A stretch of DNA of 64,000 nucleotides from an uncultured Lachnospiraceae bacterium (GCA_964367905.1 CAYIZP010000008.1:11596-75595), one strand, 5' to 3'; shown: positions 2,889-38,639, numbered from the stretch's first letter. The notes: generated by a model not told the origin, from the letters alone. A program made the numbers and translations.

Positions 2889-4328
2889 ATGAGAAAAAAC
2901 AAATTAATGGCACTAGGATTAGTTGCAGCTATGGCAATTGGTACACTTGCTGGGTGTAGTGCGGCAGAGGCACCAGCAACAGAGGAAACAGAAGGTGCGG
3001 CAGAAGAAACTGTCGAGGAGCCAGCAGAGGAAGCGGAAAGCGGTGAAAAAACCAAAGTTTTAGTATGGTCAGGAAATAGCCATGATTCTGAGTATATGAA
3101 TGAAATGGTAGCAAAGTTTAATGAAGAAAACACAGATGGAATCGAAATTGAGTATGTAGTTACAACAGATAACTATGTAAACATGATTCAAATGGGAATC
3201 CAATCAGATCAAGCACCAGATATCTTTAATATGGGACCGTCTAACAAAGATTTTGATTTAAAGTCATTTGTTGACGCGGGAATGCTTTTACCAGTTGATG
3301 AATATATGAGCGATGACTTTAAAGCGACATACGATTTAGAGAAGCTAGCATATCCAAATGTAAATACAATTGATGGTACATTCTACTATGTTCCAACAGC
3401 TCAACGTTCAGGTATGCGATTGATCTACAACAAAGAGTTATTTGAGTTAGCTGGAATTGAAAATCCACCTACAACTTTAGAAGAGATGGTTGATGCGGCT
3501 GCTAAAGTGACAGAAGTTGGAGAAGGAACAAAATTCGGTATTGGACATCCAGGTTTGAGTTCACCAATGGTTCGTATCATGGAACCAATGGCAGAGATGA
3601 GTGGAATTCTTCCATATAATTATGTAGATGGAAAGTTTGATTTTACAGGGTACAAGCCAATTATCGAAGGTGTTCGTCAAATGTTTGATGATGGAAGCAC
3701 ACTTCCAGGTGTTACTAGTATGAAGATTGACCCATTACGTGTACAGTTTTCTGAAGGAAATGTTGGTATGTATGGAAATGCTTCTCAAGAGGTTGGAGTA
3801 TTAACAGAACAATTCCCAGCTAAAATTGAGTGGGCTGTGGCTGAGATGCCTACATTGAATGGAGAAGTTGTTGGGGCACAAACAGCAGAACCTCAAAACG
3901 GATGGGTTATGACAAGTACATGTAAAAATCCAGAAGCAGCATGGAAAGTAGCAGAGTTCTTCTCTAGTGTTGAAGTAATGAAAGGTTATGTAGAAAAAGG
4001 ATATAGCTTATCTAACTCACAAGTAGTTATGGATCAAGTTGATCAATCGGCAATTGGAAAATTAGCAGAATTTGGAGTATATGATTATGAGGGATTCTAT
4101 CCTAAATATCCTGCAGTTACACCAGAAGGTAAAGTGTGGCAAGAAGTAGTTTGGACATTATGCTCTGATTCGACACTTGATATAGACTCTACACTTACAG
4201 AATTAACAGATGCGTATAATACAGCTCTTGACAAGGATGTAGAGATGGGTAAGGTTACACGTTTAGTAATCAAAGATTTTGACCCTATGAAACCAGGTGC
4301 GGGCACTTTTGAATATTTAACAAAGTAG
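2889..4328 (+). CDS. ABC sugar transporter, extracellular solute-binding lipoprotein
   Basis: 479 aa. Signal peptide plus lipobox (LAGC at residues ~20-23), followed by an acidic Glu/Ala/Thr linker and a family-1 solute-binding-protein-like body. Two permease genes follow. Confidence 0.85.
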   Translation: MRKNKLMALGLVAAMAIGTLAGCSAAEAPATEETEGAAEETVEEPAEEAESGEKTKVLVWSGNSHDSEYMNEMVAKFNEENTDGIEIEYVVTTDNYVNMIQMGIQSDQAPDIFNMGPSNKDFDLKSFVDAGMLLPVDEYMSDDFKATYDLEKLAYPNVNTIDGTFYYVPTAQRSGMRLIYNKELFELAGIENPPTTLEEMVDAAAKVTEVGEGTKFGIGHPGLSSPMVRIMEPMAEMSGILPYNYVDGKFDFTGYKPIIEGVRQMFDDGSTLPGVTSMKIDPLRVQFSEGNVGMYGNASQEVGVLTEQFPAKIEWAVAEMPTLNGEVVGAQTAEPQNGWVMTSTCKNPEAAWKVAEFFSSVEVMKGYVEKGYSLSNSQVVMDQVDQSAIGKLAEFGVYDYEGFYPKYPAVTPEGKVWQEVVWTLCSDSTLDIDSTLTELTDAYNTALDKDVEMGKVTRLVIKDFDPMKPGAGTFEYLTK

Positions 4329-29920: not shown

Positions 29921-30183
29921 TTACAGATAAAATTATTTGAGAGAGCTCTACTTATATGTATGTTTAGGCGATTTTCAGGTTGAATATAATGTAATTACAT
30001 ATAAGCCTATATCAAATTCAATGATTTATCTGTATTTTGCAGCAAACTATCTCGAAAAAAGATTCTGAATACATATAAGAAGTTGCTTGTTATCATTTCT
30101 TATATGTAAATCAAGGGATACGAATCCATTTCATGGACAGAATTACAGATAAGTTGGTTAAGATTTTCGATATTTATATGTAA
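29921..30183. repeat. Left array of four ~41-bp palindromic units (period ~72-77 bp)
   Basis: Units at 29921-29960, 29994-30036, 30069-30108 (perfect 12-bp arms TACATATAAGAA/TTCTTATATGTA) and 30143-30183. Arm consensus is TTACA(G/T)ATAAG ... CTTAT(C/A)TGTAA. Confidence 0.8.
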
Positions 30184-30303
30184 AGCGAAATACATTTCTT
30201 TTTCACAAGTACTTAAGTAAGTGATATTGTTTGAGGAAGGTAACATAAATAAAGTATATGAAAAAAAGAATAAGAAAAAAATAATAAGAAAGAAGGTTTT
30301 GAT

Positions 30304-30915
30304 ATGATAATCGTAGATGCTAGAGGTGAAAATTGTCCGATGCCAGTCATTCGTACAAAGAAGATAATGGAAGATGAAGCGCTAAAGGGAGATGTTGAGG
30401 TAATTGTAGATAATCTGATTGCATCACAGAATGTGAAGAAGTTTGCCAAGAGTCAAGGATGTGAGATAGAGGAGCAGGTGGTGAGTGAAAGGGAGTATCG
30501 TATTGTGATTCAACGTGAAGCGGGCGAGAATCAGCTCGACCATGCGAAGGATGAGCAGGAATCCAATGAGCAGATTCAAGCTGGGACGATTCTTGTGATT
30601 TCATCGGAATATATGGGGAATGGCAACGATACGCTTGGGAAGACGTTGATGAAAGGTTTTGTTTATGCATTGACTCAACAGGCGAGTTTTCCAGAGAAGA
30701 TATTGCTCTATAATGGAGGAGCGAAACTAGTAGTAGAGGGTGCGGATACATTGGAGGATCTTACTTATCTACAGTCTGAAGGTGTAGGGATTTTGACTTG
30801 TGGAGCTTGTTTGAATTTCTATGAATTGGCCGAACAGGTGAGAGTTGGTGAAATTACGAACATGTACGTAATCGTAGAGGAAATGACGAAGGCGAAGAAA
30901 ATCATAAAGCCATAG
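30304..30915 (+). CDS. yedF: Selenium metabolism protein YedF-like (TusA/SirA-like N-domain + DsrE-like C-domain)
   Basis: 203 aa; N-terminal DARGENCPMPVIRTKK (TusA-type CPxP motif) and a C-terminal DsrE-like half. It sits immediately upstream of selD. Confidence 0.75.
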   Translation: MIIVDARGENCPMPVIRTKKIMEDEALKGDVEVIVDNLIASQNVKKFAKSQGCEIEEQVVSEREYRIVIQREAGENQLDHAKDEQESNEQIQAGTILVISSEYMGNGNDTLGKTLMKGFVYALTQQASFPEKILLYNGGAKLVVEGADTLEDLTYLQSEGVGILTCGACLNFYELAEQVRVGEITNMYVIVEEMTKAKKIIKP

Positions 30916-30964
30916 GAAATGGTAAAGTTGTATAAAATCATAAAGCCATAGAAAATCATAAAAC
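30898..30964 (+). repeat. Direct 18-nt repeat duplicating the 3' end of yedF
   Basis: aaaatcataaagccatag occurs at 30898-30915 (the last codons plus TAG stop) and identically at 30934-30951. A partial third copy, aaaatcataaaac, lies at 30952-30964. Confidence 0.9.
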
Positions 30965-30992
30965 TGCAGTTTGGCGGGAGGAGTAGAAGAGA

Positions 30993-32048
30993 ATGTCAAC
31001 AGAGATAAAATTAACACAGATGTCAAAAACATGCGGATGTGCCGCGAAGATTGGACCAGGAACATTGGCAAATGTTCTGGGGCAGTTGCCTAAATTTGAG
31101 GAGGAGAGGTTGCTAGTAGGGATCGAAACATCGGATGATGCAGCAGTCTATAAAATCAATGACGAAACGGCATTGATCCAGACACTAGATTTCTTCACAC
31201 CGATTGCGGATGACCCATATCGGTTTGGTCAAATTGCAGCATCGAACTCTCTCAGCGATGTGTATGCGATGGGGGGAGAGCCTAAGGTGGCATTGAATAT
31301 CGTAGCATTTCCAAATAGTTTGGACACGGCAATCTTAGGAGAAATCCTAAAAGGGGGAGCGGATAAAGTTCGTGAGGCTGGAGCGGTGCTTGTGGGGGGG
31401 CATTCGATTCAGGATGATGAGCCGAAATACGGACTGAGTGTGTCGGGATTTGCCCATCCAGATAAGATATGGAAGAACCATGGAAGTTTAGAGGGAGATG
31501 TCCTTATCTTGACGAAGCAGATTGGAAATGGTGTTGTGAACACAGCCATTAAGGTGGATATGGCTTCCGAAGAAGCAATCGAAGAGGCGCAAATCATCAT
31601 GGCAGAATTGAATAAGAAGGCGAAGGAAGTATTCGAGAACTTCCCTGTTTCAGCATGTACAGATATCACAGGATTTGGCTTGCTGGGACATGCAATCGAG
31701 ATGGCCACAGCCAGTGAAGTTACATTGGAAATCAATGCAGATGCAGTGCCATATATCGAGGAGGCAATCGAACTGGCGAAGCAAGGTTTAGTGCCAGTCG
31801 GTGCATATAAGAACCGTGAATTTGGGCAAGAACACATCAACTATGGTGAGGTGGAAGAGTGCTATCAAGATTTGTTGCACGACCCACAGACATCGGGAGG
31901 ACTGCTATGCAGTGTGCCAGCGCAATATGCAGAGCAAATTATGCAAGCATTTGAAGAAAAGGAAATGGTCTCAAAGGTTGCAATCATAGGTAAGGTAATA
32001 AAGAAACAAGAAAAATCAATTCTATTAACCACGGATTGTAGCAGATAG
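30993..32048 (+). CDS. selD: Selenide, water dikinase (selenophosphate synthetase), Cys-type
   Basis: 351 aa; N-terminal SKTCGCAAKIGPG (Cys/Lys catalytic loop, encoded TGC GGA TGT, with no TGA). PurM-like fold motifs are present (DDAAVY, GGHSIQD). Confidence 0.9.
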   Translation: MSTEIKLTQMSKTCGCAAKIGPGTLANVLGQLPKFEEERLLVGIETSDDAAVYKINDETALIQTLDFFTPIADDPYRFGQIAASNSLSDVYAMGGEPKVALNIVAFPNSLDTAILGEILKGGADKVREAGAVLVGGHSIQDDEPKYGLSVSGFAHPDKIWKNHGSLEGDVLILTKQIGNGVVNTAIKVDMASEEAIEEAQIIMAELNKKAKEVFENFPVSACTDITGFGLLGHAIEMATASEVTLEINADAVPYIEEAIELAKQGLVPVGAYKNREFGQEHINYGEVEECYQDLLHDPQTSGGLLCSVPAQYAEQIMQAFEEKEMVSKVAIIGKVIKKQEKSILLTTDCSR

Positions 32049-32060
32049 AAAGGTTGGAAC

Positions 32061-33206
32061 ATGATTTACTTAGATAATGCGGCAACGACGCTGATCAAAC
32101 CACCGAGTGTGGGTGAGGCGATGGTAGATGCACTGATGACGAATGGAAATGCGGGGCGTGGCGCAAGTCCACAATCCTTAAGTGCCGCGAGAACGATATA
32201 CGAAACCAGAGAACGCTTAGCCAGACTCTTTGGCATCTCTAGCCCTTCTCGGATTGCATTTACATCCAATGCTACAGAGAGCCTCAACATTGCAATCCAT
32301 GGAATCATCGAAGAGGGAGATCATGTGATTGTGACACAGACAGCTCATAATTCTGTTCTTCGCCCCTTGTATTATCTAGAGGAGACGAAAAAGATTGAGT
32401 TAAGTATTGTGTCGGTAGATTCCAGAGGTGTTGTCTCCGCAGAGGAGATCGAGAAGTCTATTAAAAAATCCACAAAGGTAATTATTGGGACACATGCGAG
32501 TAATGTTACAGGGAATATTATGCCAATCCATGAGATGGGAGCTATAGCAAGAGAGCATGATCTTATATTTGTGGTAGACGCAGCACAAACAGCAGGAACG
32601 ATTCCCATTGATGTGAATGCGATGAATATCGACATCCTTTGCTTCACAGGACATAAGGGGCTCTTGGGACCACAGGGAACAGGTGGGATCTATGTGAGAG
32701 AGGGTGTTGCAATCAAAGAATGGAAGAGTGGTGGCAGTGGAACCAACTCTTATAGCAAGAAACAGCCTCAACAGATGCCAGAATTATTAGAGGCAGGAAC
32801 CTTAAATGGCCATGGAATCGCAGGATTAAATGCCGCACTGAAATATATAGAAGAGGTTGGTGTCGATGAAATTCACAGAAGAGAATCTGAACTAATTTGG
32901 AGGTTCTACCGAGGCGTTCAGGGAATAGAGAATCTTAGAATCTATGGGGAATTTGTAGAAGAAAAGCCACGATGTCCAATTCTTTCCCTCAATATAGAGG
33001 GGTATGAATCTGCAGAAGTCAGCGATGCATTATTGGGTGAATATGATATCGTAACAAGGGCTGGTGCACACTGCGCTCCCCTCATGCATGTGGCTCTAGG
33101 AACAGAGGAACAGGGTTGTGTGCGGTTCAGTACTTCTTATTTTACAACGGAAGAAGAGATAGATAGAGCGATACAAGCCATTGCAGAGCTAGCAAGTGAG
33201 AACTAG
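32061..33206 (+). CDS. Class V aminotransferase, cysteine desulfurase / selenocysteine lyase family
   Basis: 381 aa; MIYLDNAATT start, PLP-Lys region FTGHKGLLGPQGTGG, and C-terminal RAGAHCAP active-site Cys loop. Confidence 0.85.
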   Translation: MIYLDNAATTLIKPPSVGEAMVDALMTNGNAGRGASPQSLSAARTIYETRERLARLFGISSPSRIAFTSNATESLNIAIHGIIEEGDHVIVTQTAHNSVLRPLYYLEETKKIELSIVSVDSRGVVSAEEIEKSIKKSTKVIIGTHASNVTGNIMPIHEMGAIAREHDLIFVVDAAQTAGTIPIDVNAMNIDILCFTGHKGLLGPQGTGGIYVREGVAIKEWKSGGSGTNSYSKKQPQQMPELLEAGTLNGHGIAGLNAALKYIEEVGVDEIHRRESELIWRFYRGVQGIENLRIYGEFVEEKPRCPILSLNIEGYESAEVSDALLGEYDIVTRAGAHCAPLMHVALGTEEQGCVRFSTSYFTTEEEIDRAIQAIAELASEN

Positions 33207-33280
33207 CGAGCGAGAGAATTAGAGAGTCAAAAGTGTCAAGAATATCAAGAGATAGAGAAGATATAAAGGATAGTGAATAA

Positions 33281-33517
33281 ATGAGAAAAAAAGAAATGAA
33301 ACTCCTAGTAGCATTTGATACCACTACAGAAGCCATGGAGATGGAAGCGAGATGCAAATCACAAGGAATTGCTGGAAGATTGATTCCTACACCGCAGAGT
33401 ATCACGGCAGGATGTGGATTGACATGGTGCAGTGGATTGGAGTGCAGGGGGCAGATAGAAAAGCTATTGAGGGAATTTGTAGGTGGTAAAATAGGGATTT
33501 ATGAACAAATGATGTGA
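33281..33517 (+). CDS. DUF3343-like small protein (putative Se/S carrier accessory)
   Basis: 78 aa; LVAFDTTTEAMEMEARCKSQGIAGRLIPTPQSITAGCGLTW matches the DUF3343 pattern (lone Cys in a CG motif) commonly next to selD/yedF, as I recall. Confidence 0.6.
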   Translation: MRKKEMKLLVAFDTTTEAMEMEARCKSQGIAGRLIPTPQSITAGCGLTWCSGLECRGQIEKLLREFVGGKIGIYEQMM

Positions 33518-33574
33518 GTTTTCACATTGTGAAGGCACTTGCAACACTTGAGTTTGTAGGAGGGCGAAAAATCA

Positions 33575-34039
33575 ATGTATAAGAATGATAGTGATTTGTT
33601 TTTTTGTTGTAGTTTGATAGAATTTATCGGAAGAGAATGTAAGTTGAAGAGAGTAGATGTTGTCAAGAAACTAGGAGAAGAATGCATTCGAAGAATTTAT
33701 GAGAATGCGGACATTCTTCATTGTGAACCAATAGAGAAGACAGCGGATGTTTATATAAATATGTTTGATATCGGGCAAGGGGATTACGACAATGTAAGTC
33801 TTTGCAAGTATGAAGTGCCAGATTATTGGGCGATTGGAGAGGTCTATGCAAGGGTGATAGAGGACAATGTAGTTATACCTGACTCGTTATCAAAACCAGA
33901 GGTGGATGAGGTGATTAAGGTTATATTCGATGTGTATTCATCGTTTATTAGTGACAGTATATCAAATTACAATTCAGGCTTTTTTTATCAATCAAGGGAA
34001 TACATCTCAGTGTGTTACCAATCGGGCGAGGTGATTTGA
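33575..34039 (+). CDS. Hypothetical protein (154 aa), no confident family
   Basis: ORF with RBS ggaggg. The N-terminal ~65 aa loosely resemble small helical Firmicutes domains of the DUF3791 type. It is more AT-rich than the selenium genes. Confidence 0.5.
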   Translation: MYKNDSDLFFCCSLIEFIGRECKLKRVDVVKKLGEECIRRIYENADILHCEPIEKTADVYINMFDIGQGDYDNVSLCKYEVPDYWAIGEVYARVIEDNVVIPDSLSKPEVDEVIKVIFDVYSSFISDSISNYNSGFFYQSREYISVCYQSGEVI

Positions 34040-34103
34040 ACGACTTGCTAATTCAGTACTTAAGAAATTATATATGTACATATATGTAAGTAAGGAGAAA
34101 AAT

Positions 34104-34589
34104 ATGTGGATGTGGATAATTGTTATCATTGTTATAATAATTGTTATCATTTATGGGTGTGAAACATTTTATCTTTGTGAGCTTGAAAGAAATATTAAGG
34201 AAGATGTTCATGGTTTAGCAGATAACTCATTGGAAATAACACCAGAGCAATTTTTTGCTTTGAAGAGCAGAACTTATGGAGGGAGAGGAAGAGCAAGGAT
34301 AGTTAGAAAATATGAGTTTGAAGGAATATACATATTGTGCAATAGAACTAAAAACATGTATTATGTTGGGCAAGGGAAGAATGTATTTTCACGTGTAAAT
34401 TCACATTTTTCAGGGCGAGGAAATGGTGATGTGTATGCAGACTACAAATATGGCGATCTATTCACAATAAAAATGCTATCATTGGAGGAAAGTGGCTATC
34501 TATCTCTTAATGAACTTGAAAGAAAGGCTATACAAACATTTGATGCATGTTACAGGGGGTACAATAGAACAAGGGGAAATAAGAATTAG
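34104..34589 (+). CDS. GIY-YIG nuclease-domain protein with an N-terminal transmembrane helix
   Basis: The ORF opens at 34074; ATG 34104 follows AAGGAG (34092-34097). It has a TM helix (WMWIIVIIVIIIVIIYG), then GIYILCNRTKNMYYVGQGKNVFSRVNSH ... ELERKAIQTF ... GYNRTRGN, i.e. the GIY / YVG / R / E / N core. Confidence 0.7.
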   Translation: MWMWIIVIIVIIIVIIYGCETFYLCELERNIKEDVHGLADNSLEITPEQFFALKSRTYGGRGRARIVRKYEFEGIYILCNRTKNMYYVGQGKNVFSRVNSHFSGRGNGDVYADYKYGDLFTIKMLSLEESGYLSLNELERKAIQTFDACYRGYNRTRGNKN

Positions 34590-34678
34590 TCGAAATTATT
34601 TATTAACGGTTATTGCTATGCTATAACAGGAGGGATATACAAGTATATTCCAAAAATTTCAGGTTCCAAAAATTTAGA

Positions 34679-34939
34679 TTACAGATAAGTAGTTGCAAAT
34701 ATGAGCTACTTATCTGTAATTTTATTTGAAAAATAGCGTCCAGAATCTTTAGATACATATAAGATTTGATAAGAACAAATATTTTATATGTATATTTTCA
34801 CGTTGCCTGAGATTTTTTGTTCAAAAATACAGATAAAGATAGAATTTTATCAGTGCCTTATATGTAATTTAAAGTTTTTGGTATGAATATTGGCTAGAAA
34901 TGCATATAAAGAGGGAGCTCTACGATTAGCTTATATGCA
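34679..34939. repeat. Right array of four ~41-bp palindromic units (period ~73-76 bp), inverted relative to the left array
   Basis: Units at 34679-34719 (perfect 14-bp arms TTACAGATAAGTAG/CTACTTATCTGTAA), 34753-34793, 34827-34868 and 34901-34939. The reverse complement of 29942-30155 aligns collinearly with 34708-34921. Confidence 0.8.
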
Positions 34940-34952
34940 AGCACGAAAACAA

Positions 34953-34989
34953 AGAGAGAATTACCATGAACGAAATGGTAATTCTCTCT
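34953..34989. other. Perfect 15-bp stem-loop
   Basis: AGAGAGAATTACCAT gaacgaa ATGGTAATTCTCTCT. Confidence 0.8.
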
Positions 34990-35047
34990 AAAATATTGGG
35001 GATGGGGGTAGGATGAGCTTTTGCTCATATCTCCCCCGTCCCCAACC

Positions 35048-35089
35048 AAAAAGATAGCGGGAACGCCAAGGCGTTTCCGCTATCTTTTT
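35048..35089. terminator. Bidirectional intrinsic terminator just downstream of hydA
   Basis: AAAAAGATAGCGGGAACGCC aa GGCGTTTCCGCTATCTTTTT has an A-tract and a T-tract on either side. It ends 5 nt from the hydA stop codon. Confidence 0.85.
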
Positions 35090-35093
35090 AATA

Positions 35094-36836
35094 TTAGTTA
35101 ATTGTACGTTTTACATATGATGTATGCAATAAGTGATGTGCCTTGTGGCCTCCTGGTTCACCTAAGTAGGTATCATATAATTCGATGATTGCTGGGTTTT
35201 CATGTGACTTACGGATTGTGTTAGCTGAATCCAAGTCATATAAAACTTTCGCACGAAGTCCACGAATATCTACTGTGTTGCGGATGTGTCCAGGTTGTTG
35301 AGGCATTCCTCCACCGTTTACGCAACCACCAGGGCATCCCATGATTTCGATAAAGTGGTAGTCTGCTTCTCCGGCTTGAACTTTCTCAAGTAATTGTTTT
35401 GCGTTAGCAAGTCCTGATGCTACAGCAACTTTTACATCTAATCCAGCAACAGGATATGTTGCTTCTTTGATTCCTTCGATTCCACGAACATCTGTGAAGT
35501 CTAATTTCGCAAGTTCTTCACCTGTAAGTTTCTCTACTGCTGTTCTAAGAGCAGCTTCCATAACTCCACCAGTAGCTCCGAAGATTACAGCAGCTCCTGT
35601 TCCAAGTCCTAATGGAAGATCAAAGTCTTCTTCTGGAAGAGAGTGATAGTTAAGACCAACTTTTTTGATCAGTCTACCAAGTTCTCTTGTTGTCAAAGAG
35701 TAGTCAACATCTGGCATTCCATTTGCATCTTGATCTGGTCTTTGAATCTCGAATTTCTTAGCTGTACAAGGCATGATTGATACAGAAACGATGTTCTTTG
35801 GATCAATTCCTTCTTTTTCAGCATAGTAAGATTTCGCGATTGCACCAAACATTTGTTGTGGTGACTTACATGATGATAAATTATCAATCATTTCTGGGAA
35901 GTAGTGCTCGCAATACTTAATCCATCCTGGTGAACATGATGTAATTAGAGGTAATTTTCCACCGTTTTGTACACGGCTTAGGAATTCGTTTGCTTCTTCC
36001 ATGATTGTAAGGTCAGCCGAGAAGTTTGTATCAAACACTTTGTCGAATCCGATACGACGTAGTGCAGCTGCCATTTTTCCTTGAGCGTTTGTTCCAACTG
36101 GATATCCAAACTCTTCAGCAAGTCCAGCACGAACTGCAGGAGCAGTTTGTACGATTACGTGCTTCTCAGGATCAGCGATTGCTTCTAGTACTTGGTCGAT
36201 ATGTGATTTCTCGTATAGAGCTCCTGTAGGACATACTGCGATACATTGTCCACAAGACACACAACTTGTTTCTCCAAGTCCCATCTCGAAAGCAGAACCG
36301 ATTGATGTTTCGAAACCACGGTTATTCGCTCCGATAACTCCAACGCTTTGTGTTTGCTCACATACAGCTACACAACGACGGCAAAGAATACATTTGCTGT
36401 TGTCGCGCTCCATATGGATTGCGCTGTCATCGATGCATGAAGGTGTAACATCTCCTTCATAGTATGTTTCATCATCTACACCTAGGTCAGATGATAGTGT
36501 TTGTAATTCACAATTACCACTTCTTACGCAAGAAAGACATTTGCGGTCGTGGTTTGATAAGATTAGTTGCATTGTTTTCTTACGTGAATCCAATACGTTT
36601 GGAGAGTTTGTTGTAATCTCCATTCCTTCGCTGATTGGATGTACACAAGAAGCTACAAGGCTTCTAGCGCCTTTTACTTCTACAACACAGATACGGCATG
36701 CGCCGATTTCATTGATTTTCTTCAAATAGCAAAGAGTAGGAATCTCAACATGAGCTAATCTTGCGGCTTCAAGGATGGTAGTCCCAGCCGGAGCACTAAC
36801 TTCTTTGCCGTTAATTTTTACAGTAATATTCTCCAT
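35094..36836 (-). CDS. hydA: [FeFe]-hydrogenase catalytic subunit, multimeric (HydABC, bifurcating-type) class
   Basis: 580 aa with an N-terminal 2Fe-2S domain plus His-ligated and 2x[4Fe-4S] domains. H-cluster motifs are P1 TSCSPGW (variant), P2 MPCTAKKFE and P3 EIMGCPGGCVNGGG. Confidence 0.9.
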   Translation of the reverse strand: MENITVKINGKEVSAPAGTTILEAARLAHVEIPTLCYLKKINEIGACRICVVEVKGARSLVASCVHPISEGMEITTNSPNVLDSRKKTMQLILSNHDRKCLSCVRSGNCELQTLSSDLGVDDETYYEGDVTPSCIDDSAIHMERDNSKCILCRRCVAVCEQTQSVGVIGANNRGFETSIGSAFEMGLGETSCVSCGQCIAVCPTGALYEKSHIDQVLEAIADPEKHVIVQTAPAVRAGLAEEFGYPVGTNAQGKMAAALRRIGFDKVFDTNFSADLTIMEEANEFLSRVQNGGKLPLITSCSPGWIKYCEHYFPEMIDNLSSCKSPQQMFGAIAKSYYAEKEGIDPKNIVSVSIMPCTAKKFEIQRPDQDANGMPDVDYSLTTRELGRLIKKVGLNYHSLPEEDFDLPLGLGTGAAVIFGATGGVMEAALRTAVEKLTGEELAKLDFTDVRGIEGIKEATYPVAGLDVKVAVASGLANAKQLLEKVQAGEADYHFIEIMGCPGGCVNGGGMPQQPGHIRNTVDIRGLRAKVLYDLDSANTIRKSHENPAIIELYDTYLGEPGGHKAHHLLHTSYVKRTIN

Positions 36837-36851
36837 CTCAATTCTCCTTCG

Positions 36852-38639
36852 TTACTCTTTGACGATTGCTTTGAATCTACATTTTTCCATACAAGCGCCA
36901 CACTTGATACACTTGTCTTGGATGATGCTATGAGGTTTCTTAACATCTCCCTCAATTGCGTTGTTTGGACAAACTTTCGAACACATTGTACAACCGATAC
37001 AGTTGTCTTCAATGATTGTGTAAGAAAGAAGGTCTTTACATACTCCAGCTGGACAACGTTTTTCGTTTACGTGTGCTTCATACTCGTCACGGAAGTAACG
37101 AAGTGTAGAAAGTACAGGGTTTGGAGCTGTTTGTCCAAGTCCGCAAAGTGAGTTTTGCTTAATGTAGTGTGAAAGTTCTTCTAATTTATCTAGATCCGCA
37201 AGAGTAGCGTTTCCTTGTGTGATTCTGTCTAGAATCTCTAACATACGTTTTGTACCAACACGACATGGTGTACATTTTCCACATGATTCTTCTACAGTAA
37301 ACTCAAGGAAGAATTTCGCGATGTCAACCATACAGTCAGTCTCATCCATAACGATAAGTCCACCAGATCCCATCATTGAACCGATAGAGATTAGGTTATC
37401 ATAATCGATTGGAATGTCGAAATGCTCTAATGGAATACATCCACCAGAAGGTCCACCTGTTTGAGCGGCCTTGAATTTCTTGCCACCTGGAATTCCACCA
37501 CCGATTTCATCGATAACGGTTCTAAGTGTTGTTCCCATTGGGATCTCAACCAAACCAGTGTTGTTGATTTTTCCACCAAGAGCGAAAACTTTTGTTCCTT
37601 TTGATTTTTCTGTTCCCATTCCTGCGAACCAATCAGCTCCATTTAGGATGATTTGAGGAATGTTTGCATATGTCTCAACGTTGTTAAGGATTGTTGGCTT
37701 GCCAAATAAACCTTTTTGAGCAGGGAATGGTGGACGAGGTCTTGGCTCTCCACGGTTTCCTTCGATTGATGTCATAAGAGCAGTCTCTTCACCACAAACG
37801 AAAGCACCTGCACCTAAACGTAAGTCGATATCGAAATCGAACCCTGTTCCGAAGATGTCTTTTCCAAGTAATCCCATCTCTCTTGATTGCTCAAGTGCGA
37901 TTACCAAACGATCAACAGCGATTGGATACTCAGCACGTACATAGATAAAACCTTGGCTAGCTCCGATTGCATAACCAGCAATTGTCATAGCCTCTAGTAA
38001 TGAGTGAGGATCTCCCTCGAGGATTGAACGGTCCATAAATGCACCTGGATCTCCCTCATCCGCATTACAACATACGTATTTTTGATCCGCGTCGTTTTGT
38101 TTTGCTAGTCTCCACTTGATACCAGTTGGGAAACCACCGCCTCCACGGCCACGAAGTCCTGAAGCGATCAATGTCTCGATTACGTCTTCTGGAGTCATAG
38201 TTGTAAGAACTTGACCTAATGCTTGGTATCCGTTTGTTCCGATATACTCTTCGATGATTTCTGGGTTGATTACACCACAGTTACGTAGAGCAACACGGTA
38301 TTGCTTCTTGTAGAAGTCTGTGTCGATTAACGCTTTGATTCCTGCGTCTGTTACAGTCTCTTGATATAATAGACGAGTAACTAGACGTCCTTTTAATAAA
38401 TGTTCTTCAACGATTTCAGGAATATCTTCTTCCTTAACCATTGCATAGAAACTTGCTTCTGGGTAAACAATCATAATTGGTCCTAAAGCACATAGACCAT
38501 GACATCCTGTTTGTACAACAGAAACTTCATCTTTTAACCCTACTCTATCTACTTCTTTTTGTAGAGTTTCCATAATTTTAACGCTTCCGGAGGAATTACA
38601 ACCAGTTCCACCGCAAACTAATACATGTGAACGATACAT
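36852..38639 (-). CDS. hydB: Hydrogenase flavoprotein subunit, NuoF-like (NADH/FMN-binding) with Fe-S domains
   Basis: 595 aa; GRGGGGFPTGIKW FMN/NADH motif, SCGKCTPCR N3-type cluster, and C-terminal 2x CxxCxxCxxxCP ferredoxin motifs. Confidence 0.9.
   Translation of the reverse strand: MYRSHVLVCGGTGCNSSGSVKIMETLQKEVDRVGLKDEVSVVQTGCHGLCALGPIMIVYPEASFYAMVKEEDIPEIVEEHLLKGRLVTRLLYQETVTDAGIKALIDTDFYKKQYRVALRNCGVINPEIIEEYIGTNGYQALGQVLTTMTPEDVIETLIASGLRGRGGGGFPTGIKWRLAKQNDADQKYVCCNADEGDPGAFMDRSILEGDPHSLLEAMTIAGYAIGASQGFIYVRAEYPIAVDRLVIALEQSREMGLLGKDIFGTGFDFDIDLRLGAGAFVCGEETALMTSIEGNRGEPRPRPPFPAQKGLFGKPTILNNVETYANIPQIILNGADWFAGMGTEKSKGTKVFALGGKINNTGLVEIPMGTTLRTVIDEIGGGIPGGKKFKAAQTGGPSGGCIPLEHFDIPIDYDNLISIGSMMGSGGLIVMDETDCMVDIAKFFLEFTVEESCGKCTPCRVGTKRMLEILDRITQGNATLADLDKLEELSHYIKQNSLCGLGQTAPNPVLSTLRYFRDEYEAHVNEKRCPAGVCKDLLSYTIIEDNCIGCTMCSKVCPNNAIEGDVKKPHSIIQDKCIKCGACMEKCRFKAIVKE

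Follow-up and report, generated by a model that had tools for sequence, protein, structure and literature searches.

A dispersed intergenic module of helically phased palindromic units, a candidate protein-docking array, on both sides of a Lachnospiraceae selenium cassette

In the window, by which we mean the whole 64,000-nucleotide stretch of uncultured Lachnospiraceae DNA analysed here, two arrays of palindromic units lie on either side of a block of selenium genes. The explanation that we prefer, and to which we would give an even chance, is that each array represents a single copy of a dispersed intergenic module, with units that are phased double-stranded sites for a putative dimeric DNA-binding protein. 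The module is dispersed, its arrays are homologous and collinear over their whole length, the spacing of the units is quantised, the arms do not covary, and the half-sites and their spacing are under purifying selection in place.

Organisation of the two arrays

The half-site TACAKATAAR was found 15 times in the 64 kb, compared with 0.89 ± 0.87 times in shuffled sequences (maximum 4), and 14 of these matches fell inside the two arrays, which bears out the original prediction of four palindromic units per array on both sides of the selenium genes. Each unit comprises a 10-nt half-site, 19 nt and the inverted half-site (39 bp in total), with the consensus (GAAAW)TACAKATAAR-N19-YTTATMTGTA(WTTTC) and a period in the window of 74 bp. 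The left-array units start at 29922, 29996, 30070 and 30144, exactly 74 bp apart, while those of the right array start at 34680, 34754 and 34828, followed by a degenerate fourth unit in which TGCA replaces TACA and the start, 34901, is shifted by −1. The features are as follows:

29922..29960, − strand: left array, unit 4 (family polarity), TACAGATAAA-N19-CTTATATGTA
29996..30034, − strand: left array, unit 3 (family polarity), TACATATAAG-N19-TTTATCTGTA
30070..30108, − strand: left array, unit 2, with perfect 12-bp arms
30144..30182, − strand: left array, unit 1, the unit closest to the selenium cassette
30183..30230, + strand: leader on the unit-1 side of the left array, ATTTCTTTTTNACAA, also present in family members L025 and L060
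34680..34718, + strand: right array, unit 1, with perfect 14-bp arms
34754..34792, + strand: right array, unit 2
34828..34866, + strand: right array, unit 3
34901..34939, + strand: right array, unit 4, degenerate, TGCATATAAA...CTTATATGCA, starting 73 bp beyond unit 3

The perfect arms described previously were recovered, those of 12 bp (in 30069-30108) at 30070-30081 and 30097-30108, and those of 14 bp inside 34679-34719. Between the arrays, the cassette encodes a TusA-like protein, SelD, a class-V aminotransferase, a Se/S carrier, a 154-aa protein and a TM+GIY-YIG protein. The right array, like its ortholog, is situated between two convergent 3' ends.

The inverted collinearity that had been proposed for the two arrays is real, but its register was one base out. 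In that register, the reverse complement of 29942-30155 matched 34708-34921 at 67/214 positions (31%), which is chance level (shuffles, 65.5 ± 6.3), whereas the reverse complement of 29941-30154 matched the right array at 120/214 (56%), and adding a 1-nt gap before unit 4 gave an inter-array identity of 164/272 (60%). The similarity is not confined to the half-sites, since outside them the arrays agreed at 100/212 positions (47%) against 61 ± 6 expected (29%; z = 6.3), and among the 48 possible unit arrangements the collinear-inverted pairing scored best. The GAGCTC cited as a shared landmark does occur in both outermost units, but with an offset of 3 nt and without conservation in other family members. 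Two copies of the module, 4.5 kb apart and in opposite orientation, account for the inverted collinearity, and the left array resembled L025 and L060 more closely than it did its counterpart on the right.

The module is dispersed among loci and genomes

When genomes were scanned with the unit pattern (at least 60 loci; one genome per species), many copies were obtained in unrelated contexts. Arrays were present on at least seven contigs of one Lachnospiraceae MAG that is ~98% identical to the window over the hydA-side flank, and also in Mageeibacillus, Agathobacter, Butyrivibrio, a Clostridiales MAG, other Clostridia, Treponema and metagenome contigs, the hosts being gut and rumen anaerobes. 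No arrays were found in the viral contigs, phages and plasmids searched. The four-unit arrays L025 and L060 aligned collinearly with those of the window (69-74%), and L043 with the ortholog of the right array at locus L001 (69%); these whole-module alignments span ~230-350 bp, with the unit-specific loops and spacers in the same order. The collinear arrays of the Lachnospiraceae MAG are intergenic and lie at loci unrelated to the selenium region. In Treponema, a 305-bp element with sharp boundaries occurs at two loci with 93% identity.

Taken together, the module is a non-coding, intergenic sequence of ~300-350 bp, present in multiple copies per genome, with three to six units (four in the lineage of the window) and half-sites that alternate in orientation in steps of 29 and 45 bp; its 74-bp period is not divisible by 3. 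All copies examined were intergenic and, among the matches listed, most arrays were single (within 8-kb tiles). The one other clear pair, at L053, is a direct and not an inverted one. Among the loci examined, the genes flanking the arrays had nothing in common, no gene family recurred beside them, and the arrays were oriented either way relative to their neighbours. The selenium operons of relatives do not carry arrays. The clean empty site that the original prediction had envisaged was not found in the relatives: their loci lack the array and break synteny at that point, and in one close Agathobacter-like relative what is left of the array is a deletion remnant bordered by microhomology, which indicates that at least some copies are dispensable.

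Spacing, symmetry and conservation in place

Start-to-start distances between units were 73-76, 84-85, 95 or 106 bp, with only one weak case of 78 bp otherwise, and these classes (74, 84.5, 95 and 106 bp) correspond to 7, 8, 9 and 10 turns of ~10.56 bp. Since many arrays elsewhere (L024, L038, L072 and L080) consist of near-identical tandem copies of the whole 74-95-bp unit, the spacing within them is inherited rather than independently selected, so the evidence for quantisation rests on about four spacing classes. Across 90 units the loop length was 18-20 nt and half-site positions 1-9 were near-invariant (partly as a result of how the units were selected). The loops were not conserved across lineages, their centre being 78-86% A+T compared with ~45% on either side, and the flanks outside the half-sites were A-rich, both of which we read as cues in DNA shape about the dyad. 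The half-site centres are 29 bp apart (~2.75 turns), which matches no obvious simple-dimer geometry.

These features also bear on whether the units act as RNA or single-stranded DNA hairpins, that is, as terminator or stabiliser stem-loops, structured non-coding RNA or targets of HUH- or integron-type recombinases, which we consider very unlikely. Some units do fold strongly (the best, 34676-34722, at −13 kcal/mol and z = −7.0; three further units lie between z = −3 and z = −5) and two genes converge on the right array, which is downstream of both, but the remaining 4/8 window units folded no better than shuffles. In the 90 units the arms varied independently at position 5 (G/T) and at position 10 (A/G), and among the 22 units with G at position 5 of one arm, 17 had T in the other. 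Moreover, conserved stem sequences with free loops are the reverse of the usual RNA pattern, the arrays show no fixed orientation with respect to adjacent genes, quantisation by helical turns would be meaningless for single strands, and Rfam 15 gave no match in the window at the gathering threshold, only noise at E up to 5. Independent arm variation, together with the failure of half the window units to fold, argues for double-stranded recognition instead.

Purifying selection keeps the half-sites and their spacing in place. When the window was compared with the orthologous array at L001, essentially the only orthologous pair on which this conclusion is based, the half-sites had 2 differences in 80 positions and the rest of the array 29 in 192 (Fisher p = 0.0012; p = 0.011 for A/T positions only). 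The latter divergence (15%) is close to that of third codon positions in csd (13%), and indels occur just outside the orthologous array and never inside it. The Treponema paralogs show the same tendency, with 0/60 differences in half-sites and 7/163 elsewhere. At the orthologous locus the GIY-YIG ORF is largely deleted, and the adjacent array is retained.

We therefore favour phased docking sites, a model in which each 39-bp unit would be bound, as double-stranded DNA, by a dimer of a putative sequence-specific protein. Because the units are integral turns apart, the bound dimers would all face one side of the helix and could assemble cooperatively into a single nucleoprotein complex of ~300 bp, and the module would have spread to its many loci as a whole repeat. 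Candidate roles for such a complex are local transcription control, an architectural or barrier role, or a recombination target.

Alternative explanations

The strongest competitor, possible but in our judgement improbable, is that the module is a selfish, non-autonomous MITE- or BIME-like element whose half-sites bind a transposase or recombinase encoded elsewhere, and which is conserved because only intact copies propagate and not for any use to the host. The module is multi-copy and dispersed, with homology along its whole length and sharp boundaries, and it is distributed patchily over two phyla with gut and rumen habitats in common. The arrays also sit at synteny breakpoints, are missing from the loci of relatives, are frequently found a few hundred bp or less from the end of a contig, and have IS fragments inside or adjoining them; those of L056 are beside three tandem Rpn/PD-(D/E)XK 'putative transposase' paralogs, and a weak PDDEXK_2 gene separates the two at L053. 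However, module boundaries, set by aligning copies, revealed neither terminal inverted repeats nor target-site duplications, so that of the traits of a MITE the module has the small size, the lack of coding capacity and the copy number but not these two. The only near-empty site is the deletion remnant, and no transposase was consistently linked to the arrays, the Rpn-subfamily HMM matching only L056 among the loci examined. The absence of arrays from viral contigs, phages and plasmids is a further difficulty, as is the retention of half-sites in orthologous copies after insertion, which a purely master-copy model gives no reason to expect, and transposase recognition of the hairpin or end type needs no helical phasing between units. 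The main reading of the original prediction took the arrays as inverted ends, each with several sites, of a 4.5-kb selenium cassette that is mobile or can invert. The arrays are indeed inverted, with their unit-1 sides inward, and the right third of the bracketed segment is strain-variable (a DUF3990 gene gained or lost, the GIY-YIG ORF deleted). Synonymous divergence is 13-14% in csd and the Se-carrier gene compared with 5-6% in the hydA flank, the MAG contig tile expected to hold the left array gave no perfect unit, and pairs of arrays separated by a few kb seem more frequent than chance would give (the window, L053, L056 and L016/L035). Nevertheless, that reading is not supported, and we give it very little credence: collinear arrays occur at unrelated loci and are mostly single among the matches listed, the L053 pair is direct, and the left array is closer to arrays of other loci than to its supposed partner. 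The cassette, as already noted in that prediction, contains no transposase or integrase, nor any recombinase, the selenium operons of relatives do without arrays, the divergence varies as a mosaic and shows no step at the array, and the array stays where the GIY-YIG ORF is deleted.

A portable promoter, in which the array and its leader travel together and the four units are operator or activator sites for an outward promoter on the unit-1 side, appears rather unlikely. In the window it would drive the TusA/YedF-SelD-Csd operon, and the leader (30183..30230, + strand) does contain a predicted sigma-70-like promoter reading into it, TTCACA-17-TATTGT with an upstream TG (an apparent extended −10, TGnTATTGT), 75 bp upstream of the operon. 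The leader, with a −35-like TTNACA, is common to the left array, L025 and L060, and in 4/5 scorable lineage copies a gene reads away from the unit-1 side at a distance of 120-360 bp. That proportion is not significant (p ~0.19), L025 and L060 have a weak −10, conservation of the leader does not extend to the right array, L043 or L056, and the number of promoter-like sites in the region (24) is not above that in shuffles (19.3 ± 4.3). In addition, the downstream genes are functionally unrelated, and the right array and its ortholog, between convergent 3' ends, lack a gene that a promoter on the unit-1 side could drive. The earlier argument, that a promoter function common to the two arrays does not explain them, stands.

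Comparison with known systems

Two classes of repeat array were set aside. Integron attC sites or CALINs have RYYYAAC...GTTRRRY cores (R''/R') and gene cassettes between their sites, whereas the cores here are TACAKATAAR and YTTATMTGTA, with no ORF between units and a period of 74-106 bp. A CRISPR array has full-length repeats that are identical, unique spacers and cas genes close by; here conservation is limited to the 10-nt arms, the 'spacers' are homologous between dispersed arrays, and the flanks examined carry no cas genes. Composite or multi-site transposon termini were also rejected, there being no internal recombinase or transposase and inverted bracketing pairs not being the rule. Transposon ends with several transposase-binding sites are known from Tn7 (TnsB sites), Mu (L1-3/R1-3) and En/Spm (subterminal repeats), and from MITEs derived from such ends. 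The resemblance lies in the multiple spaced sites per end, the mutual inversion of the ends and the multi-copy short non-coding derivatives; here, in contrast, the sites form palindromic pairs, the arrays are usually single, and the search for a transposase, terminal inverted repeats and target duplications found none.

In Enterobacteria and Pseudomonas, REP and BIME elements form dispersed, non-coding clusters, confined to intergenic DNA, of alternating orientation and with linkers of set length, found in every gene-orientation context and bound by the host proteins IHF and gyrase; the REP itself is a GC-rich hairpin of 20-40 nt whose GTAG motif is recognised by the RAYT transposase. The likeness suggested originally comes nearer the data than the cassette-end reading and holds for the many dispersed intergenic copies and the alternating half-site orientation, but not for the palindromes: the conserved element here is an AT-rich half-site of 10-15 nt that is not itself a palindrome, hairpin potential is not conserved, and GTAG is absent from the unit consensus. 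What is copied here is also the whole four-unit array and not a single unit, and no RAYT (Y1 HUH) gene was seen in the array loci examined.

Among plasmid systems, comparable arrays are found at centromeres and iterons, for example F sopC (12 × 43 bp, an inverted repeat in every unit), R1 parC and P1 incC/incA, which flank repA. They share with our arrays the tandem, helically phased units, a single higher-order complex (the binding being putative here) and the possibility that two arrays flank a gene block. They differ in that our arrays are chromosomal, at many loci and on none of the plasmids or phages searched, have no par or rep genes nearby at the loci examined, and have a far longer period of 7-10 turns. 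Cooperative or looping multi-operator regions, exemplified by lambda OL/OR and the Lrp sites at pap and ilvIH, likewise have several dyad-symmetric sites per region, with conserved half-sites and free spacers on one helix face, and may occur as paired regions a few kb apart. Unlike these regions, the arrays described here are not confined to promoters, their regulator is putative, and their inter-site sequence is homologous between loci, which indicates that the module was copied whole and that the sites did not evolve independently. With arrays of the phased operator or centromere type the module nonetheless has in common its dyad symmetry, conserved half-sites, free spacer, fixed half-site distance and integral helical-turn spacing.

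Structure of the arrays in the window

Within the 64-kb window there are 15 matches to the 10-nt half-site TACAKATAAR, compared with 0.89 ± 0.87 in shuffled sequences (maximum 4), and 14 of the 15 fall within the two AT-rich gaps. Both gaps contain four dyad-symmetric units. Since the inverted half-site always begins 29 nt after the forward one, each unit spans 39 bp (10 + 19 + 10), and the units recur with a period of exactly 74 bp, as listed here together with the single deviating unit:

Left array, forward half-site starts: 29922, 29996, 30070, 30144
Right array, forward half-site starts: 34680, 34754, 34828
Right array, unit 4: 34901-34939, degenerate (TGCA replaces TACA), 73 bp after unit 3

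The perfect 12-bp and 14-bp arms described in the original prediction are real. Tandem Repeats Finder did not detect the window arrays, because their units are too diverged.

The two arrays had also been proposed to be collinear in inverted orientation. In the register first given, the reverse complement of 29942-30155 against 34708-34921, identity is only 31%, which is the chance level; moving the register by one base (29941-30154) yields 120 of 214 identical positions (56%), and adding a 1-nt gap before unit 4 extends this to 164 of 272 (60%). With the half-sites removed, loops and spacers alone match at 100 of 212 positions, compared with 61 ± 6 in shuffles (z = 6.3), and the collinear-inverted pairing ranks best among the 48 possible unit pairings. 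The inverted collinearity therefore stands, with coordinates that were off by one.

A tandem duplication of the 16-bp sequence TTCCAAAAATTTCAGG (34648-34679) directly adjoins unit 1 of the right array; in L001, a contig of the Lachnospiraceae MAG CAYJFY01, the sequence is single. On the - strand, a promoter-like site, TTGGAA-16-TATACT (34669-34642), overlaps this duplication; transcription from it would enter the GIY-YIG ORF in the antisense direction.

A dispersed family of arrays

The full unit pattern, scanned once over species-representative genomes, matched at least 60 loci. Single-unit matches in Pseudomonas, Vibrio, Flavobacteria and similar genomes were at chance frequency, and multi-unit arrays were found in CAYJFY01 (seven contigs), a Mageeibacillus MAG, two Agathobacter MAGs, a Butyrivibrio MAG, a Clostridiales MAG and a Treponema MAG. 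A stricter pattern, in which three half-sites were required, recovered additional arrays in metagenome contigs. This genome-wide search, proposed as a check in the original prediction, thus found multi-unit arrays at many unrelated loci, which speaks against their being cassette ends. On the left-array side of the CAYJFY01 contig, the species-representative scan found no perfect unit in the neighbouring tile. At one locus, L073 (15-230), the search pattern is matched by chance by a 30-bp tandem repeat (CTTACATATAAGGTGACCCCACTACACAAC) that has no relation to the arrays.

The right side of the window has its orthologue in L001, with 98% identity in the flank on the side of hydA ([FeFe] hydrogenase) and 89% in the array. 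Unrelated CAYJFY01 loci carry four units (contigs L025, L060 and L043) or three (contig L056). L025 and L060 align collinearly with the window arrays at 69-74% identity over ~275-305 bp, and L043 is 69% identical to the orthologous right array in L001; in all these alignments the order of the unit-specific loops and spacers is kept and the flanks are without any match, so that the repeated object is the whole four-unit module. On its unit-1 side this module includes a leader of 40-90 bp, and its other end, after unit 4, is sharp. L025 and L060 resemble the left array more closely than the right array does, and the window contains two members of the family in opposite orientation, accounting for the alignment reported originally. 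In Treponema, two loci share a 305-bp element at 93% identity; it consists of a 70-bp leader plus three units and has sharp edges, and neither terminal inverted repeats nor a target duplication were found at these two loci.

Genes in and around the bracketed segment

The genes lying between and beside the window arrays are as follows:

Bracketed segment, + strand: TusA/YedF-like protein
Bracketed segment, + strand: SelD
Bracketed segment, + strand: class-V aminotransferase (csd)
Bracketed segment, + strand: Se/S carrier
33575-34039, + strand: 154-aa protein, no family match and no Pfam match
Bracketed segment, + strand: 171-aa protein with a membrane helix and a GIY-YIG domain
Left of the segment, - strand: SAM-dependent methyltransferase
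Right of the segment, - strand: [FeFe] hydrogenase

The window set (30304-34039) comprises TusA/YedF, SelD, Csd and the Se carrier, and is without the selA, selB and LysR genes found between SelD and Csd in relatives' selenium operons (L081-L084); the selenocysteine insertion genes are therefore not part of the window cluster. In those operons (~62% Csd amino-acid identity) the order is TusA-SelD-SelA-SelB-LysR-Csd-...-Se carrier, and none of them carries arrays, so we rejected a link between arrays and selenium genes. An 18-bp tandem repeat (30896-30962; 3.7 copies, 71% matches) covers the TusA/YedF-like gene's 3' end together with the spacer ahead of selD.

Strains differ in the right third of the bracketed block (33517-34589; L001 975-2015). 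L001 carries a DUF3990 gene inserted at the equivalent of window position ~33517, and it is without window 34117-34417, the core of the TM+GIY-YIG ORF. Also absent from L001 is a 93-bp segment just downstream of hydA (34997-35090), which contains a G-rich hairpin (34996-35045), whose G-rich motif occurs once in the window, and a bidirectional terminator-like hairpin (35048-35089). Third-codon divergence between window 32568-38509 and L001 is 13% in csd, 14% in the Se carrier, 5.8% in the 154-aa ORF, 6.2% in hydA and 4.7% in a NuoF-like gene, a mosaic that suggests recombination within the region.

Divergence of half-sites and spacers

Between the window and the orthologous L001 array, half-sites differ at 2 of 80 positions and the remaining positions at 29 of 192 (Fisher p = 0.0012; p = 0.011 with A/T positions only). 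No indels occur inside the array, and indels of 16 bp and 93 bp lie just outside it. Because the 15% divergence outside the half-sites is about that of third-codon positions in csd (13%) and the Se-carrier gene (14%), and exceeds that of hydA (6%), loops and spacers look neutral, and half-sites and spacing look constrained, judging mainly from this one orthologous pair. The Treponema paralogs point in the same direction, with 0 of 60 half-site positions differing versus 7 of 163 elsewhere.

Duplex sites versus hairpins

In a set of 90 units taken from 22 loci, the arms show no covariation at the two half-site positions that vary: position 5 pairs are G/G in 5 units, G/T in 7, T/G in 10 and T/T in 68, and A and G occur in free combination at position 10. 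When folded as single-stranded DNA, four of the eight window units do no better than shuffled sequences, and the arrays have no match in Rfam. Stems hold their sequence and loops drift, the opposite of what structured RNA usually shows. A hairpin or RNA function was rejected on the absence of arm covariation, the unfolded half of the window units and the lack of an Rfam match.

Start-to-start spacings fall into four classes, plus one weak 78-bp exception, and the classes correspond to 7, 8, 9 and 10 turns of ~10.56 bp:

73-76 bp, many lineages: 7 turns
84-85 bp, Treponema and Butyrivibrio: 8 turns
95 bp, one array: 9 turns
106 bp, one array: 10 turns

Such phasing on one face of the helix makes sense only if the DNA is duplex and carries bound proteins. 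Outward of each half-site the sequence is A-rich (GAAAW), and the loop centre is 78-86% A+T compared with ~45% on either side, which would fit minor-groove contacts or bending at the dyad.

Genomic context of the arrays

All arrays are intergenic, between divergent, convergent or tandem genes. The flanking genes have unrelated functions, and an all-against-all comparison of flanking ORFs across loci revealed no recurrent neighbour. AraC-type and other regulators beside arrays were discarded as candidates, being of different families and no more frequent than their general abundance predicts. A phage or plasmid origin was likewise rejected: viral contigs held only single-unit matches at chance level, and Blastn found no arrays on phage and plasmid records. 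Arrays are frequently close to contig ends, at a distance of a few hundred bp or less, where repeats tend to sit.

In Agathobacter, the L015 array lies just downstream of a conserved peptidase operon, at a synteny break, and is missing from 13 relatives' loci at this position. Its closest relative (L015 5230-5610; L097 1342-1452), a pig-gut contig whose flanking M14 peptidase is 97% identical at the amino-acid level, keeps only a spacer 1 fragment and the last half-site of an L015-type four-unit array, after two deletions bounded by TTTC and TTT microhomology. Some array copies can be lost, as this remnant shows.

In L056 (1-3811), an array lies downstream of each of three tandem Rpn/PD-(D/E)XK 'putative transposase' paralogs, and in the second array copy an IS3-like fragment separates unit 1 (2742) from unit 2 (3505). 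The Butyrivibrio MAG locus L053 has two arrays 2.8 kb apart in direct orientation (606-812; 3589-3967), with a PAP2 gene and a weak PDDEXK_2-like gene between them; each array is followed by the common tail ATGACAAGTTCGCGAATAA...CCGCACCGAA. These two loci gave the idea that the Rpn/PD-(D/E)XK protein is the cognate protein. It was set aside since the subfamily HMM matches only L056 among the loci examined, and is a lead rather than a finding.

Possible explanations

We give an even chance to the explanation that the arrays serve a putative dimeric protein as phased double-stranded binding sites, with the units bound as duplex on one helix face, and that they lie on a repeat module that would have been copied around genomes and between lineages. 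A more ambitious form, which we hold only tentatively, makes them the DNA half of an undescribed system moving between phyla: a dimer would sit on GAAAW-TACAKATAAR half-sites 29 bp apart, three to six units at 7-10 turns would build a ~300-bp nucleosome- or partition-like complex marking or insulating intergenic boundaries in gut and rumen anaerobes, and the site modules would spread with the protein.

A selfish element, a reading that overlaps with the binding-site explanation, is rather unlikely; it would suit the dispersal and sharp boundaries of the module, its patchy distribution across phyla, the IS fragments within or beside arrays and the Rpn/PD-(D/E)XK paralogs around the L056 arrays, but there are no terminal repeats or target duplications, no clean empty sites and no consistent transposase. 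The conserved leader and a promoter-like site at 30202-30230 lend some support to a portable promoter, an improbable explanation that leaves the right array unaccounted for. We see very little prospect for the original prediction that the arrays are the termini of a selenium cassette or transposon, despite weak hints from the strain-variable right third of the segment, the mosaic synonymous divergence and the seemingly rather frequent array pairs a few kb apart. It was rejected because the arrays are dispersed and mostly single, and the L053 pair is direct, not inverted. For the window, this removes the suggestion of a mobile selenium cassette.

If a protein binds the arrays, they would be a new sequence-specific chromatin or regulatory element, belonging to abundant and poorly studied gut and rumen bacteria (Lachnospiraceae, Oscillospirales, Treponema). 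The signature, a fixed 39-bp dyad unit with spacings only in whole helical turns, is unusually clear and therefore directly testable. The family shows an entire multi-site array of putative binding sites copied around the genome as a unit, which has implications for the spread of regulatory or architectural sites. On the practical side, short-read assemblies break at the arrays, which could be mistaken for transposon ends.

Comparison with known systems

We found no description of the array family in the literature, and it matches no Rfam family. The DnaA box (TTATCCACA), the Fur/PerR boxes, the BlaI/CopY TACAnnTGTA box, the TyrR box, and the dif and attC cores presumably either do not fit the half-sites or have the wrong geometry. 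Integron (attC) and CRISPR readings failed on defining features. MITEs differ in their terminal repeats and target duplications, and multi-site transposon ends in that the arrays have neither an internal transposase nor obligate inverted pairs. The REP/BIME alternative raised in the original prediction holds for the distribution, which is alike, and fails on hairpins and GTAG. We rate the family as a dispersed intergenic repeat array that may serve as a protein-binding array, distributed like REP/BIME and working most like phased operator or centromere arrays.
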